Below, piece after piece: positions 21,665-25,843 of a DNA stretch of 64,000 bases; position 1 is the stretch's first letter, and every line of letters begins with the position of its first letter. Made by a program: the position numbers and the translations under genes. Source of the stretch: an uncultured Alphaproteobacteria bacterium (lineage in GTDB: Bacteria; Pseudomonadota; Alphaproteobacteria; RF32; CAG-239); the NCBI GenBank assembly GCA_944390915.1, contig CALXRS010000007.1:2214-66213 (forward strand). Reading direction: 5' to 3'. The notes beneath the pieces are model-generated. The model had not been told where the DNA came from. It did no database searches and saw only the letters and a list, made by a program, of their open reading frames with translations.

Positions 21665-22572
21665 ATCATCTTTTCCAAAGTTCTTTTAACCGTATAATAG
21701 GCCGTCTGCATGGCCACCAGCATGGAAAACAGCGGCAGGCTGAGAATGGCGACCCACGCCCCCCAGGAAAGACGCGCCTCGTTGATGATGCCGCCTTCTA
21801 TCTGCTGCGCCAGATGGGCTATGACAAAAATGGTCGGCACGGCGCAGGCCACGCCGATAACCCCGCCGATAAAACCGAGCACGGACGTTTTGGCGGCGTA
21901 TTGCTGGGCAATATAGGTATCTTTGGCGCCCAGCAGATGGAGAATCTCGATAATGTCTTTATGCAGACCGAGGCTGGTCTGAGTAGAATAAAAAATGGCG
22001 CCCGAGGTCACCCCTATCACCAGCACCAAAACGCTCAACGCCAGCATTTTTAAGCCGTTGGCAAAATTAATCAGTTTGTTTAACCACAGTTTGTGGTTGT
22101 CAAGCGAGGCTTGCGGCGCCACGGCCGCCAGCTTTTCCGCCAGCGCCAGAAAATTGACTTCCGCTCCTTTTTTGAGTTTAACGTCTATCAGCCGCGGCAT
22201 CGGCAGGTTGCTCAAATCGACGTCATCGCCGAGCCATGGTTTCAGCAGGCGTTCCAGCTGTCCGTCGTTCAGAGGCGTAACCTTTTGCACCTCGGGCATG
22301 GCCTCGAGCATGGCCACGGCTTTTTCCTGCTGTACCAGAGTTTCGTTTTTGGCTTTCAGCTTATCGACGCCGTTAACGGGAATAATCTGCACGGTCAGCG
22401 AACCGAGAATGCTGGCGTTCCAGTTGACCAGCATGGAGTTGATGGAAAGTACGCCGGAAAGCGTAACCGCAAACAAAAACACGGCAATGGAAATCATCAC
22501 CTTGAGAAACAGGTTGGACGAGTCCTTGGAGAGCGGCAGCTCCCGATGGCGCATGTTGCTATATTTCTGCAT
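21661..22572 (-). CDS. ftsX: Cell division ABC transporter permease FtsX
   Basis: 303 aa with four-TM FtsX topology and a periplasmic loop. Overlaps ftsE by 14 nt. Confidence 0.85.
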   Translation of the reverse strand: MQKYSNMRHRELPLSKDSSNLFLKVMISIAVFLFAVTLSGVLSINSMLVNWNASILGSLTVQIIPVNGVDKLKAKNETLVQQEKAVAMLEAMPEVQKVTPLNDGQLERLLKPWLGDDVDLSNLPMPRLIDVKLKKGAEVNFLALAEKLAAVAPQASLDNHKLWLNKLINFANGLKMLALSVLVLVIGVTSGAIFYSTQTSLGLHKDIIEILHLLGAKDTYIAQQYAAKTSVLGFIGGVIGVACAVPTIFVIAHLAQQIEGGIINEARLSWGAWVAILSLPLFSMLVAMQTAYYTVKRTLEKMM

Positions 22573-23263
22573 ATTCGTCTCCGTCTTCGGGATTGATAAT
22601 CGTGACGCCGTGGTTTTTAAGGTGGATGCACGGATAGCAAAACTCTTTAATCAGGTTTTCGTTGTGAGTGGCAATCACCACGGTGGTGCCGAGCTTGTTG
22701 AGTTCGACAAACAGCTTCATCAACTTCGGAGCAATATCGTTGTCCACATTGCCGGTCGGTTCGTCGGCCAGCAACACGTCCGGCCGGTTGATAACCGCGC
22801 GGGCAATGGCCACGCGCTGCTTTTCGCCGCCGGAAAGCGTAGAGGTTATGGCTGTCGGGCTGCGGTCTATTTCCACCCATTTCAACAGTTCGTTCACTCT
22901 TTTACGGATTTCTTTTTCGTTCATCCCGCACACACGCAGCGGCAAAGCCACGTTGTCAAAAGCCGACGAATGTTCAAGCAGGCGGAAGTCCTGAAAAACA
23001 ACCCCGATTCGCCGGCGGAACATGGCCAAAGCATTGCGGTTGGCAAAGTTAACGTTGTTGCCGAACACGCTGACCGTGCCCTTGCTCGGTTTCTGCGCCA
23101 AATACATCATGCTCAACAGCGAGGTTTTGCCGGCGCCGCTTTTGCCGGTCAGGTAATGGAACGACCCTTTTTCCAGAGAAAGGTTGACATTGCTCAGAAT
23201 TTCCGGCCCGCGGCCATAGCGGATACAGACGTTTTCCATGCGGATAATCGGCGTTTTGCTCAT
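22559..23263 (-). CDS. ftsE: Cell division ABC transporter ATPase FtsE
   Basis: From the ATG at 23263 (AAGGAG RBS): MSKTPIIRMENVCIRYG.. Walker A GKSGAGKTSLL, signature LSGGEKQRVAIARA, Walker B VLLADEPTG. The longer form in the track (to 23416) was rejected. Confidence 0.92.
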   Translation of the reverse strand: MSKTPIIRMENVCIRYGRGPEILSNVNLSLEKGSFHYLTGKSGAGKTSLLSMMYLAQKPSKGTVSVFGNNVNFANRNALAMFRRRIGVVFQDFRLLEHSSAFDNVALPLRVCGMNEKEIRKRVNELLKWVEIDRSPTAITSTLSGGEKQRVAIARAVINRPDVLLADEPTGNVDNDIAPKLMKLFVELNKLGTTVVIATHNENLIKEFCYPCIHLKNHGVTIINPEDGDEYAEI

Positions 23264-23384
23264 TTGCAGCGAATACTCCTTGGTTTTTGAATAACAACAT
23301 ACTATAATAATATTCTCTTTAAGAAAATCTTTTTTTCCGGCAAAAAAAGAGATTTTTACATCAAAGCCTGTTTCGGGAGAAAAA

Positions 23385-24113
23385 ATGCTTATAAAATGTC
23401 CTTTGTGCCACACCACATATCAGCTTGAAGGCTCCGTGCCGACCGGCCGGCACCTGCGTTGCGGCAAATGCGGACATTTGTGGTCGGTTCAAAACAGCCC
23501 TGCCCCGTCCTTCGCGCCGACGCCGAAAAATCTGCTCTCGGTGGCGGCGGCCGCCCGTCTCATCGAACCGGCCCAAAAAAATCAACCGGCGGAAAAGAAG
23601 CCCGTTTCCGTTTGCCGACCGGCCGTCTTTCCAACGACAAAACCGGTTGTTGCTCGGGTAACAAAAAACAAAAAAAATCTTTTGCCGCTGCCGGCAACCC
23701 GATATTTTCTTTGCGCGACGGCCGCGGCTCTGGTAACAGGCGGGGTTTGGCTGCTGCGCGAACCGATAGCCCAAACCATGCGCCAGGGCGCGGAAATATA
23801 CCGGCAGTTTGACGCTGCCTTTCAACCTCTTTCCCCTTTGCCGAAAATCAGCAGTCTGGCGTGGAACTACGACAACGACAGCCCGCTGCCGATAATCCGC
23901 CTGCAAGGAAAAATCACCAACCCGTCGGCCGAGTTGCTGAGCATTCCGACATTAAAAATCCGCCTGCTCGGCAGTCGCGGCAGCCTGCTGAAAGAAAACA
24001 CCCTGTTGCCCGCCCGCGGCGTGCTCACGCCGTACAGCTCGGTTAATTTTGAAATCGACATCGACGCTCCGACGGAAACCGTCAAACAGGTTTACGCCTA
24101 TTTTGCCGAATAA
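23385..24113 (+). CDS. MJ0042-type zinc-ribbon protein with TM segment and DUF3426-like C-terminal domain
   Basis: MLIKCPLCHTTYQLEGSVPTGRHLRCGKCGHLWSV contains CxxC...CxxC. A central hydrophobic segment FLCATAAALVTGGVWLL follows. Confidence 0.75.
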   Translation: MLIKCPLCHTTYQLEGSVPTGRHLRCGKCGHLWSVQNSPAPSFAPTPKNLLSVAAAARLIEPAQKNQPAEKKPVSVCRPAVFPTTKPVVARVTKNKKNLLPLPATRYFLCATAAALVTGGVWLLREPIAQTMRQGAEIYRQFDAAFQPLSPLPKISSLAWNYDNDSPLPIIRLQGKITNPSAELLSIPTLKIRLLGSRGSLLKENTLLPARGVLTPYSSVNFEIDIDAPTETVKQVYAYFAE

Positions 24114-24148
24114 ATTTTTCTTTTTCCCGTTCAGGCAAATTTTTAAGC

Positions 24149-24177
24149 TTGCCAATTTCCGGCACTTTCTTTAATAT
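24149..24177 (+). promoter_or_regulatory. Sigma70-like promoter of RNA unit 1
   Basis: TTGCCA (24149-24154), 17-nt spacer, TAATAT (24172-24177). Confidence 0.6.
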
Positions 24178-24184
24178 CTGTCCT

Positions 24185-24346
24185 GCATCCGGGAGACCGG
24201 GTGCGGTGTCTAACAAACATCTTCAACGTAAAAAAACATCCTTCCTCGGAAGGAGTGCCGGTAATATATTGAATAACGGCGACTGTATACGTTGACAGTT
24301 TGTTAGCTCCTTCCGCCTGCAGGCTTTTGCCGGGCGGTTTTGTTTT
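24185..24346 (+). ncRNA. Structured RNA, tandem unit 1 (unclassified family)
   Basis: 5' hairpin gcatccgg-GAGA-ccgggtgc (24185-24204). Outer helix ctaacaaac (24210-24218) pairs with gtttgttag (24298-24306). Inner helix is tcaacg/cgttga, with hairpins tccttc-ctcg-gaagga and gccg-N16-cggc. Terminator ccgcc...ggcgg + TTTTGTTTT ends at 24346. Confidence 0.65.
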
Positions 24347-24394
24347 AACTACAGAGTAAAAAAAGAACAAAGGGAGGCGGACAACAGAAAGAGC

Positions 24395-24423
24395 TTGCCA
24401 ATTTCCGGCTCTTTCTTTAATAT
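24395..24423 (+). promoter_or_regulatory. Sigma70-like promoter of RNA unit 2
   Basis: TTGCCA (24395-24400), 17-nt spacer, TAATAT (24418-24423). Confidence 0.6.
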
Positions 24424-24430
24424 CTACCCT

Positions 24431-24587
24431 GCATCCGGGAGACCGGATGCGGTGTCTAACAAACATCTTCACTATAAAAAATCCTTCTCCGGAAGGAGTG
24501 CCGGTAATATGTTGAATAACGGCGACTGTATAGTGACAGTTTGTTAGCTCCTTCCGCCTGCAGGCTTTTGCCGGGCGGTTTTGTTTT
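24431..24587 (+). ncRNA. Structured RNA, tandem unit 2
   Basis: Same architecture as unit 1. The inner helix is tcacta/tagtga, three compensatory base-pair changes relative to unit 1. The terminator U-tract ends at 24587. Confidence 0.65.
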
Positions 24588-24637
24588 AACTACAGAGTAA
24601 AAAAACAGAATAAAGGGAGGCAGACAACAGAAAGAGC

Positions 24638-24666
24638 TTGCCAATTTCCGGCGCTTTCTTTAATAT
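24638..24666 (+). promoter_or_regulatory. Sigma70-like promoter of RNA unit 3
   Basis: TTGCCA (24638-24643), 17-nt spacer, TAATAT (24661-24666). Confidence 0.6.
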
Positions 24667-24673
24667 CTACCCT

Positions 24674-24829
24674 GCATCCGGGAGACCGGGTGCGGTGTCT
24701 AACAAACATCTCTCAAGAAAATAATCCTCTTTTGGGAGGAGTGCCGGTAATATGTTGAATAACGGCGACTGTTCTTGAGCAGTTTGTTAGCTCCTCCGCC
24801 TGCAGGCTTTTGCCGGGCGGTTTTGTTTT
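24674..24829 (+). ncRNA. Structured RNA, tandem unit 3
   Basis: Same architecture. The inner helix is ctcaagaa/ttcttgag (compensatory) and the hairpin is tcctc-ttttgg-gagga. The terminator U-tract ends at 24829. Confidence 0.65.
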
Positions 24830-24879
24830 AACTACAGCGTAAAAAAACAGAACAAAGGGAGACAGACAACAGAAAGAGC

Positions 24880-24908
24880 TTGCCAATTTCCGGCTCTTTC
24901 TTTAATAT
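24880..24908 (+). promoter_or_regulatory. Sigma70-like promoter of RNA unit 4
   Basis: TTGCCA (24880-24885), 17-nt spacer, TAATAT (24903-24908). Confidence 0.6.
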
Positions 24909-24915
24909 CTACCCT

Positions 24916-25097
24916 GCATCCGGGAGATCGGATGCGGAGTGTAGCAACTCCTTTCGAAGAATTTAATAAACAACTCCTTTCAGGGGAGCTGTTGATATAA
25001 GCATATTTTGAAAGAATATGACGAATAAAACAGACTGTTCTTCGACAGTTGCTAACTCCCCGCCTCGGAACCCTTTTCGGGCGGTTTTGTTTTTTTT
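24916..25097 (+). ncRNA. Structured RNA, divergent unit 4; may double as a 5' leader of the HTH gene
   Basis: Same 5' hairpin (gcatccgg-GAGA-tcggatgc). Outer helix tagcaac/gttgcta and inner helix tcgaagaa/ttcttcga both covary with units 1-3, but the interior differs. The terminator is ccgcc (25060-25064) / ggcgg (25080-25084) + TTTTGTTTTTTT, ending 35 nt before the HTH start codon. Confidence 0.55.
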
Positions 25098-25131
25098 GAA
25101 GACAAACAAAATAACAGGGGAGTTTCAAACT

Positions 25132-25356
25132 ATGTTTAACGATAAAATCAAAAGAATGATCGGCGAAGAGCTGCAAAAATACCGCAGCAGCCGCTTTTGG
25201 CAGCTGAAAACTCTGGCTGCCAGAACCGGCATCCCGTGGTATATTATCGACAATATGGAAATCGGCAGTGTGCGCCGATGGGAATATTACCGCCGCTTGC
25301 TCGATTTTTATGGCAAGGAAATCAAAATCGTGCTGGTTGACAGCAAAAAAGAATGA
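25132..25356 (+). CDS. Small XRE-family helix-turn-helix protein (74 aa)
   Basis: I prefer the ATG at 25132, 9 nt after GGGGAG (25117-25122). The track start at 25018 would read through the unit 4 terminator. MFNDKIKRMIGEELQKYRSSRFWQLKTLAARTGIPWYIIDNMEIGSVRRWEYYRRLL.. has HTH_XRE-like spacing. A terminator follows. Confidence 0.7.
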   Translation: MFNDKIKRMIGEELQKYRSSRFWQLKTLAARTGIPWYIIDNMEIGSVRRWEYYRRLLDFYGKEIKIVLVDSKKE

Positions 25357-25370
25357 CCAAAACGGAGAAA

Positions 25371-25393
25371 GGCGGCCTCAAACCGCCTTTTTT
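25371..25393 (+). terminator. Intrinsic terminator of the HTH gene
   Basis: ggcgg (25371-25375), loop cctcaaa, ccgcc (25383-25387), then T6. Confidence 0.7.
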
Positions 25394-25418
25394 ATATTCT
25401 GTACGCAAACACCGATCA

Positions 25419-25843
25419 GAATTTTGCGAGCCTGCACCAAACCGCTCCAGCCGCCCGTAAACCTCCCCTCTTAAAAGCGCGTTATATGAGGCGGATAATA
25501 AGAAATCAGGGGATTGGCAAGGGCGCGTACAAAACAGTACGTAACCGCCGCCAAGCCCCGCAATTTCTGTATTAGCCGCCCGTAAACCTCCCCCTCTTAA
25601 AAGCGCGTTATATGAGGCGGATAAAGTGGTTTGGAAAGCGAGCAAAATTTTAGTGTACAAAGAAGTACATGAATTTTGCGAGCCTGCACCAAACCGCTCT
25701 AGCCGCCCGTAAACCTCCCCTCTTAAAAGCGCGTTATATGAGGCGGATAATAAGAAATCAGGGGATTGGCAAGGGCGCGTACAAAACAGTACGTAACCGC
25801 CGCCGAGCCCCGCAATTTCTGTATTAGCCGCCCATAGAACCGC
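25419..25843. repeat. Second tandem array: about 1.7 copies of a 252-bp unit (layout A-R-B-R-C-A-R-B-R')
   Basis: The ~170-bp block at 25419-25590 recurs at 25671-25842. The 50-bp R element agccgcccgtaaacctcccctcttaaaagcgcgttatatgaggcggataa is at 25449, 25574 and 25701, with a partial copy at 25826. Extended 24-bp imperfect hairpins lie at 25501-25568 and 25753-25820, and another hairpin at 25642-25679. Confidence 0.85.

Follow-up and report, generated by a model that had tools for sequence, protein, structure and literature searches.

The 64,000-nt stretch of contig CALXRS010000007.1 (assembly GCA_944390915.1, from an uncultured alphaproteobacterium), which was analysed as a whole and is called the window below, carries at 24149–25097 four tandem copies of a promoter, a structured RNA and a terminator, and thus raises the question what such a series of units is for. 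The original prediction, made from the sequence alone, had seen in them a candidate new multicopy family of small RNAs (sRNAs). The reading that we consider probable is that the RNA is a default-terminating, attenuator-type leader of a gene for an XRE-family helix-turn-helix (HTH) protein, which is located directly after the fourth unit, and that this leader has been amplified in tandem here.

The array itself is as predicted. Tandem Repeats Finder returned a repeat at 24146–24937 with a period of 243, 3.3 copies and 91% matches, and a consensus scan found TTGCCA-17 nt-TAATAT once per claimed unit (Table 1), with eight promoter-like sites in 23500–25800 compared to 1.6 ± 1.4 in shuffles. Also the described architecture of a 5' hairpin, a long helix enclosing two hairpins and a terminator is present in every unit. 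The hairpin P1 (8 bp, GCAUCCGG-GAGA-YCGGRUGC) starts 7–8 nt past the -10 box, the long closing helix consists of P2 and P3 and encloses the hairpins P4 and P5 in a three-way junction, and the terminator is formed by CCGCC...GGCGG followed by UUUUGUUUU. All compensatory differences between the units that had been listed for P3 were found, as was the altered outer helix of unit 4. The units show a minimum free energy (MFE) of -65 to -67 kcal/mol with z-scores of -4.9 to -6.8, and none of 200 shuffles folded as well. As the reverse complement of a unit also folds well (z -5.0), the strand was assigned by means of promoter, U tract and G-U pairs. A covariance model search with filters off revealed no copies beyond the four units in the window.

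The suggested comparison with known RNA families gave no match at gathering thresholds in the window (Rfam 15, 4227 models) and only noise in E-value mode on 24050–25200 (best E 0.38), while Rfam applied at gathering thresholds to 18 loci of other genomes carrying the RNA identified two tRNAs and nothing else. A description of this RNA was not found in the literature searched, in which the large catalogue of gut candidate RNAs (PMC8040213) is covered in part. In the part covered, HTH-XRE genes are named as frequent neighbours of the 3161 candidate RNAs (Fremin & Bhatt 2021, PMC8040213); none of the approximately 194 alignments compared from this catalogue matches our RNA, and an earlier listing there is possible. 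The RNA belongs to no catalogued (Rfam 15) family and probably represents a new family of leaders, about 150 nt in length, with an unusual deployment in that a genome has many cassettes and a different small XRE regulator gene follows in each.

For the distribution of this family we used a pattern made from motifs common to five paralogue types and scanned one genome per GTDB species. The pattern matched at least 120 stretches, and among the matches listed about 113 are from uncultured gut Alphaproteobacteria, whose NCBI labels include 'Azospirillum sp.', Rhodospirillales and Candidatus Scatocola and whose hosts are human, mouse, deer and chicken (gut). With the covariance model R1, seeded from unit 1 and its centroid structure, at least 118 full-length copies outside the window (96 + 22, E 1e-25 to 2e-4) were identified in the fetched loci. 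They derive from at least about 54 species-level genomes of gut Alphaproteobacteria, several of which have 6–7 loci among the matches listed. Seven listed pattern matches outside the Alphaproteobacteria as well as two viral contigs, which would have pointed to a phage link, failed the covariance model and are thus regarded as chance. RNAalifold on a MAFFT alignment of 14 units resulted in a wrong partial structure, as MAFFT misaligned the hypervariable helices, and was replaced by the covariance model. In nearly all of 116 copies a strong promoter of sigma-70 type is found at a fixed distance from the RNA. Its (C/A)TTGCAA -35 box is preceded by A/T-rich sequence, and a spacer of 17 nt leads to a TAATAT-like -10 box, which ends 6–7 nt before RNA position 1. 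The claim that every unit has its own promoter and terminator holds, and both are conserved.

To take a closer look at selection on the fold we compared 96 aligned sequences, in an alignment that was fitted to the model and whose members had been found with the motif pattern. Standard pairing was observed in 96.1% of the cells compared to 42–50% with the partners slid by 1–3 columns, compensatory double changes occur in 42 of the 47 base pairs over about 54 species, and 0 of 500 shuffles reached the observed pairing measures. In an independent scan the top 22 column pairs by mutual information were all base pairs of the model. This covariation together with the several loci per genome bears out an RNA that is multicopy and under selection for its structure. 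That the family is real and structured is as good as certain. Its conserved elements are the three-way junction, an 8x8 internal loop in P5, the GACUGU of the junction and the P1 loop GAGN. The GAGA loop of P1 had been described as a GNRA tetraloop and is GNRA-like in the window, but the consensus of the family is G-A-G-N with A, U or G as last base, so that the GNRA fold is not the conserved feature. Besides the model base pairs, columns 39 and 51 of alignment A4 (24207 and about 24219 in unit 1) covary even though they are unpaired (U-A 67, A-U 14, 92% pairable). One of them is the N of the 5' GGNGU (its third base) and the other directly follows the 5' strand of P2, and the two may form a tertiary or alternative pair or simply distinguish the two main subfamilies, GGUGU and GGAGU.

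That there is no RNA element at all, and that the locus is a DNA-level tandem repeat, a miniature inverted-repeat transposable element (MITE) or a short protein-coding repeat, could be argued from the minus-strand open reading frames (ORFs) of 57–114 amino acids (aa) in the tandem repeat and from the unrelated DNA repeat family next to it. This explanation is effectively refuted by the helix-specific compensatory changes, by the strand specificity of promoter and terminator and by the ORFs themselves, which have no Pfam match. Within the 96 relatives no reading frame is conserved on either strand and the RNA lengths are uniform modulo 3 instead of being multiples of three. Coding potential was consequently rejected for both strands, in agreement with the earlier view of the minus-strand ORFs as artefacts. 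On the plus strand, unit 2 contains a TTG-initiated ORF of 50 codons (24395–24547) that extends from the -35 box through the RNA; the other units have no counterpart of it and Pfam gives no match, so that it looks like chance.

The role of the RNA becomes apparent from its genomic context. When 118 copies were oriented, more than 90% of the evaluable ones showed, on the same strand and 28–45 nt past the terminator, a Shine-Dalgarno (SD) sequence and an ORF of 71–115 aa. About 75 evaluable copies are followed by SD and ORF in this way, most exceptions lie at contig ends, and most of the remaining apparent orphans are gene-linked as well, their terminator loop or spacer being interrupted by a MITE-like element or their ORF being frameshifted. 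Gene-less copies are units 1–3 of the window and a few upstream tandem copies elsewhere. As there is no room for a second promoter between terminator and ORF, the RNA forms the 5' leader of the XRE gene, and we regard its function as cis leader of the XRE genes as highly probable. In the window the typical order of an attenuator leader, with promoter, structured leader, terminator and co-oriented ORF, is found for unit 4 and the ORF at 25132. The RNA of unit 4 is the canonical leader of this 74-aa gene and carries an extra hairpin P5b, as typical of the family (69 of 96 relatives). Units 1–3 repeat promoter, leader and terminator together with an SD remnant but lack the ORF. From the proposed new multicopy sRNA family the real, structured and multicopy RNA without Rfam match therefore remains, but more than 90% of its members are leaders of an XRE gene.

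Three loci (L035:3857-4019, L094:4606-4806 and L126:6492-6642) have the leader in front of a large cysteine-rich protein with an N-terminal signal or lipoprotein-like sequence (MKIKFLLLGTSLSLI...) and not in front of an XRE gene, and in L120 an IS200-like transposase ORF comes after the leader. Genes of other kinds can thus recruit the leader.

A free-standing family of trans-acting multicopy sRNAs, with CU-rich segments that pair with the SD sequences of targets and with the XRE protein as a co-located dedicated regulator, would explain the conserved strong promoter and terminator of every copy, the combination of 5' hairpin and 3' terminator that suits a stable RNA, and a default fold that terminates. 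It would also explain that the gene-less units 1–3 keep all helices via compensatory changes, that gene-less upstream copies recur in other species (L108, L038, L130) and that the RNA is far more conserved than the protein (mean column identity of 20%). In contrast, stand-alone units as known from anti-SD sRNAs are represented only by units 1–3 and the few other tandem copies, and the ORF-linked majority argues against this explanation. The CU-rich segments, which are decisive here, are discussed below together with the alternative fold.

The protein encoded downstream belongs to a very divergent family with a common C-terminal '...Y-G-K-K-I/L-x-I-x-L-x-D'. Pfam HTH_31, HTH_3 and HTH_25 are matched by 22–28 of the 40 aligned proteins (39 relatives and the window protein), and the family profile matches DdrOC, HipB, C.BclI and SinR in the PDB with a best E of 6e-10. 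The window protein alone reached E 0.019 and 15.7 bits against HTH_31, below the cut-off of 27, whereas it scored 86 bits against the hidden Markov model (HMM) from the alignment A5 of these 40 proteins, a value that is inflated because A5 includes this protein. A protein homologue search resulted in three close relatives only, and the AlphaFold model of the window protein, based on this shallow alignment, is too poor for use (predicted local distance difference test score of 54.6). No further XRE-family gene besides the ORF at 25132 was found in the window with the family HMM.

With their XRE-type HTH and their length of 71–115 aa the downstream proteins resemble small autoregulated regulators of the XRE/Cro/C-protein type, and self-repression is also suggested here by inverted repeats. 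Those of 6 nt or more are concentrated at the -35 region (32 of 53 cases) and are represented in the window by AGAAAGAGC-N13-GCTCTTTCT, which suggests copy-specific operators, with the repeat at the promoter of unit 4 as a candidate. To our knowledge, regulators of this type are not known to carry a conserved 150-nt structured leader that contains a terminator.

The gene order also recalls type III toxin-antitoxin systems, so that a selfish or defensive two-part cassette of toxin-antitoxin or phage-immunity type, in which the RNA neutralises or controls the protein, had to be considered. As in ToxIN, a promoter, a (sometimes repeated) RNA, a terminator and a small protein gene follow each other and read-through sets the protein level; the cassettes are multicopy and strain-variable, with a copy downstream of pgk only in L001 and L002, they often adjoin MITE-like repeats, and PADLOC indicated weak similarity to HTH_VI, CapH and control proteins. 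However, the ToxI repeats are 36 nt long, promoterless and cut by the endoribonuclease ToxN, whereas the repeats described here are about 245 bp long, have their own promoters and precede a plain XRE HTH protein without nuclease or toxin domain. Furthermore, the XRE gene is monocistronic (in 52 of 62 modules the next gene is convergent), a search for a toxin-antitoxin partner gene downstream of it found none, and the viral contigs that match the pattern gave no match to the covariance model. Such a cassette is therefore very improbable.

The CU-rich stretches had been likened to the anti-SD seeds of multicopy sRNAs. This part of the prediction is not supported, as they are base-paired and covary with internal G-rich partners and with the SD of the gene itself. 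P4b, the 3' arm of P4 (GG-N'-GGAG), is complementary to the 5' arm P4a (UCC-N-CC) and also to the pre-terminator segment (CUCC-N''-CC), which overlaps the 5' arm of the terminator, and the variable position covaries in all three. Between P4b and the pre-terminator segment this position is pairable in 92 of 94 copies with all four Watson-Crick types, it has changed at least 18–24 times in a tree built without those columns, and the pairing score is 18.8 for cognate and 16.4 ± 0.25 for non-cognate combinations. Already in the window units 1/2, 3 and 4 differ in step at all three segments (Table 1). The three-way covariation argues for two mutually exclusive folds, one terminating and one antiterminator-like. 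Forcing the P4b:pre-terminator helix leads to a coherent fold that retains P5 and has the invariant GACUGU paired with ACAGUU. It erodes the terminator and is 10–11 kcal/mol less stable than the junction fold S1, and thus junction fold and termination are the default. An exclusive alternative pairing at the terminator 5' arm, as expected for an attenuator, is hence present; its overlap with the terminator is only 2–3 nt in the window units and larger in the CUCCGCC subtypes.

Further possible partners of the pre-terminator segment are the 5' GGNGU of the closing helix and the SD of the gene. In the window, the SD region GGGGAGUU (25117–25124) is the exact complement of AACUCCCC (25054–25061), and the MFE fold of the read-through transcript uses this pairing as well as the pairing of the U tract with an A tract. 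In 40 copies a G interrupts the U tract and has a C as its partner in the A tract, in seven copies the two bases are C and G, and no A-C combination of pre-terminator A[G/A]CUCC and SD GGAG[C/U] occurs family-wide.

The covariation of the CU-rich segments with cis partners speaks for a cis switch rather than for seed pairing in trans. Well-known multicopy sRNAs are alpha-r14/NfeR1 and the cuckoo RNAs CcsR1-4 of Alphaproteobacteria and LhrC1-5 of Listeria, which act in trans via CU-rich motifs in loops or single strands. They resemble the RNA described here in near-identical and often tandem copies, CCUCC-like motifs and Rho-independent terminators, but here UCCNCC (P4a) and CUCCNCC (pre-terminator) are in helices and covary with cis partners, and our RNA has no Rfam match. 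In addition, CcsR RNAs are located downstream of a DUF1127 gene and our RNA upstream of an XRE gene. An exposed conserved seed was not found, and the conserved unpaired motifs GAAUAA and GACUGU are not anti-SD-like. The NsiR1 array of Nostoc, a tandem array upstream of a protein gene in which each repeat has a promoter, an RNA of about 60 nt and a terminator, has the same layout of self-promoted repeats but differs in organism, fold and regulator, and NsiR1 is not the family-wide leader of one gene family. Altogether a trans-acting sRNA family is an unlikely explanation for the RNA as a whole. A trans role of the gene-less units 1–3, which keep the fold, is possible.

We therefore return to the attenuator-type leader, for which we slightly favour the following mechanism. 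By default, S1 with the closing helix P2-P3, P4 and P5 would form together with the terminator, transcription would stop and a stable RNA of 155–180 nt, shielded by the 5' hairpin and the 3' terminator, would be released. An effector, which could be a protein, a metabolite or an RNA, would act on the conserved junction and loops, such as the internal loop of P5, or on the 5' strands and would shift the RNA to S2, composed of the P4b:pre-terminator helix, P5 and the GACUGU/ACAGUU hairpin. S2 would weaken the terminator and allow read-through into the XRE gene, while translation of the read-through mRNA would be further gated by the SD/pre-terminator pairing, so that XRE protein would be made upon release of the SD. 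This protein would probably repress its own promoter via the inverted repeat. As the RNA core is conserved and the proteins diverge, a common factor is more likely as effector than each cognate protein. Units 1–3 would have arisen by recombination in the shared terminator and T tract and would add three promoters, each followed by an attenuator, in series feeding one gene; they would necessarily also add terminated RNA, for which action in trans is conceivable. That they retain the fold, with switch segments matched in all three places, is consistent with such serial stages.

With the attenuation leaders of trp type, PyrR or T-box type and with terminator riboswitches our RNA shares the promoter-proximal structured leader, the terminator directly before the ORF and the G-rich strand with two CU-rich partners, one of which overlaps the terminator, as well as an additional gating at the SD. 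It differs from them in having no Rfam 15 match and no leader peptide, tRNA-binding or known protein-binding motif, in an alternative fold that needs the long closing helix to be open, and in the regulated genes, which are a paralogous XRE set with at least 6–7 members per genome. SreA and SreB of Listeria are S-adenosylmethionine (SAM) riboswitches whose released short RNA acts in trans. Our leader is similar in terminating by default and releasing a stable short RNA, perhaps with a second job in trans, but in their case the ligand SAM is known.

Several points weigh against the attenuator-type leader as proposed. S2 needs both P2 and P3 to be open, and no opener was identified in this analysis. 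With only 2–3 nt of the terminator 5' arm covered by the alternative helix in the window units, the antitermination effect could be small. Promoter and terminator are consensus-based calls, and the enrichment of inverted repeats is modest (mean best arm of 5.7 nt compared to 5.0 nt in shuffles). Because the members were picked by the motif pattern, GAAUAA, ACUGU, CAGUU and CCGCC are in part invariant by selection of the sequences; in five copies that were not picked in this way, CGAAUAA, RRCUGW and CAGUY are approximately kept. The gene-less units 1–3 keep the fold, which a purely cis role explains only if upstream read-through matters, and the 5' hairpin together with the strong promoter would fit an RNA product that is stable and abundant. 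Finally, no ligand is suggested by the regulated genes, which code for transcription factors.

This last point also concerns a true riboswitch, a more specific version of the attenuator-type leader in which junction and internal loop would bind a small molecule and set the choice between terminator and antiterminator. Size and complexity of the RNA, with three-way junction, 8x8 loop, GACUGU and GAGN, are consistent with it, as are the two exclusive folds backed by covariation and the conserved core next to diverging proteins, which argues for a common effector. However, instead of a coherent set of metabolic or transport genes we found XRE regulators and a few cysteine-rich secreted proteins downstream, which suggests no ligand, the switching strand is inside the aptamer and not the 3' strand of the closing helix as in classical riboswitches, and a protein or RNA effector would fit equally well. 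A riboswitch in the strict sense is thus a possibility that we consider as clearly the lesser one. Slightly more speculative still is a new class of sensor, for a ligand or a protein, that would simultaneously gate a paralogous bank of XRE repressors (at least 6–7 cassettes per genome), with the terminated form as abundant sRNA and the hypervariable but strictly complementary P3 as a copy-specific address keeping the cassettes orthogonal. If this were true, the array in the window might be a dosage amplifier or an ultrasensitive device with four promoter-attenuator stages in series.

For the general leader model, the variation between strains is informative. A look-up of the flanking proteins yielded 13 metagenome contigs of this species, on which ftsEX, the zinc-ribbon gene, the array, the 74-aa ORF and the convergent argS follow each other as in the window. 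The number of units among the same-species contigs (L001–L012) is two, three or four, and the gene-proximal unit is of the unit-3 and not the unit-4 type in L002–L005 and L009. In strain L002 the unit-3 type is located directly before the XRE gene and is fused to the spacer of unit 4, with the junction in the shared terminator/T tract, suggesting that the units are interchangeable leaders whose copy number shifts by recombination. At L002, the sole locus inspected in this respect, the junction shares only about 16 nt, which makes an assembly collapse unlikely. Two strains have a fifth copy of the RNA downstream of pgk (L001:16459-16609 and L002:16333-16489), which is unlinked and more diverged, with GAAA as P1 loop and P3 pairing CACAAGAA/UUCUUGUG, followed by an apparently truncated or degenerate XRE ORF of 55 aa. 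As this copy is absent from the window and the other strains, the cassettes are strain-variable.

If the leader reading is correct, a new and well-supported orphan regulatory RNA family with more than 110 examples and covariation in nearly every base pair can be added to the list of orphan RNAs, including two alternative folds backed by three-way covariation. It comes from a gut clade with no cultured model and essentially unknown regulation. A conserved sensor-like leader on many divergent small transcription factors suggests that one signal might be fanned out to many DNA-binding specificities. As the switch segments are short and defined, the model is directly testable. The locus also shows that an apparent array of sRNA genes can turn out to be amplified leaders of a neighbouring gene once relatives are compared.

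Table 1. Positions in the window and pairing segments of the four units, their promoters and the downstream XRE gene.
Feature	Position	Strand	Details
Unit 1 promoter	24149-24177	+	-35 TTGCCA 24149-24154; 17-nt spacer; -10 TAATAT 24172-24177
Unit 1 RNA	24184-24346	+	about 160 nt, without gene; MFE -66.6 kcal/mol, z -5.8; model R1 199.9 bits
Unit 1 P1	24185-24204	+	
Unit 1 P2/P3 5' strands	24205-24230	+	
Unit 1 P4	24239-24254	+	
Unit 1 P5	24257-24280	+	
Unit 1 GACUGU	24281-24286	+	
Unit 1 P3/P2 3' strands	24288-24310	+	
Unit 1 pre-terminator	24307-24314	+	CUCCUUCC
Unit 1 terminator	24313-24337	+	U tract to 24346
Unit 1 P3 pairing			UCAACGU/ACGUUGA
SD remnant after unit 1	24372-24377		GGGAGG
Unit 2 promoter	24395-24423	+	TTGCCA-17-TAATAT; inside inverted repeat AGAAAGAGC 24386-24394 / GCTCTTTCT 24408-24416
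Unit 2 RNA	24430-24587	+	about 158 nt, without gene; model R1 174.5 bits
Unit 2 P1	24431-24450	+	
Unit 2 P4b	24491-24498	+	GGAAGGAG
Unit 2 pre-terminator	24548-24555	+	CUCCUUCC
Unit 2 P3 pairing			UCACUAU/AUAGUGA
Units 1 and 2 switch segments			P4b GGAAGGAG; pre-terminator CUCCUUCC
SD remnant after unit 2	24615-24620		GGGAGG
Unit 3 promoter	24638-24666	+	flanking inverted repeat 24629-24637 / 24651-24659, one mismatch
Unit 3 RNA	24673-24829	+	about 157 nt, without gene; MFE -64.8 kcal/mol, z -4.9; R1 158.7 bits
Unit 3 P4a	24725-24729	+	UCCUC
Unit 3 P4b (switch segment)	24735-24741	+	GGAGGAG
Unit 3 pre-terminator (switch segment)	24791-24797	+	CUCCUCC
Unit 3 P3 pairing			CUCAAGAA/UUCUUGAG
SD remnant after unit 3	24857-24862		GGGAGA
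Unit 4 promoter	24880-24908	+	perfect inverted repeat AGAAAGAGC 24871-24879 / GCTCTTTCT 24893-24901, candidate operator
Unit 4 RNA	24915-25097	+	about 180 nt; MFE -67.2 kcal/mol, z -6.8; R1 56.6 bits, E 9e-12
Unit 4 P1	24916-24935	+	
Unit 4 P4a	24974-24979	+	
Unit 4 P4b (switch segment)	24983-24988	+	GGGGAG
Unit 4 CGAAUAA	around 25022-25028	+	
Unit 4 GACUGU	25033-25038	+	
Unit 4 pre-terminator	25054-25061	+	(AA)CUCCCC; switch segment CUCCCC
Unit 4 terminator 3' arm and U tract	25079-25097	+	
Unit 4 P3 pairing			UCGAAGAA/UUCUUCGA
Unit 4 outer helix, altered			GUAGCAAC/GUUGCUA
Post-terminator segment of read-through mRNA	25085-25124	+	U tract pairs with AAACAAAA 25104-25111
XRE-family HTH gene, 74 aa	25132-25356	+	directly after unit 4
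Hairpin with T/A runs on both sides	25365-25393		terminator-like on both strands; ends XRE gene

A second and unrelated tandem repeat is located at 25419–25836 between the XRE gene and argS. It consists of two 166-nt copies, 252 bp apart and 98% identical, and contains a 34-nt core (CCCCTCTTAAAAGCGCGTTATATGAGGCGGATAA) every 126 bp in three copies as well as short palindromes such as CGTACAAAACAGTACG; depending on the strain, the XRE gene and argS are separated by 238 to 767 bp. Repeat insertions were also observed in cassettes of other species, in the terminator loop (L101, L020), at the start of the XRE ORF (L117, L121) and in the spacer (L059, L081, L129). Those of L101, L020, L117 and L121 are MITE-like and share '...CAAGGGCGAG-AAAATTTTAG-CGTACAAAACAGTACG-TGAATTTTT...' with the second repeat of the window, and the elements inserted in L059, L081 and L129 may be different. 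Such repeats seem to target or to accumulate at the hairpins of this cassette. Upstream of the array, the longest FtsE ORF (22559–23416, minus strand, 285 aa, GTG start) overlaps the start of the divergent zinc-ribbon gene (23385–24113, plus strand). As FtsE is called with 234 aa in related contigs, translation probably starts inside this longest ORF, which would leave about 120 bp between the two divergent genes.

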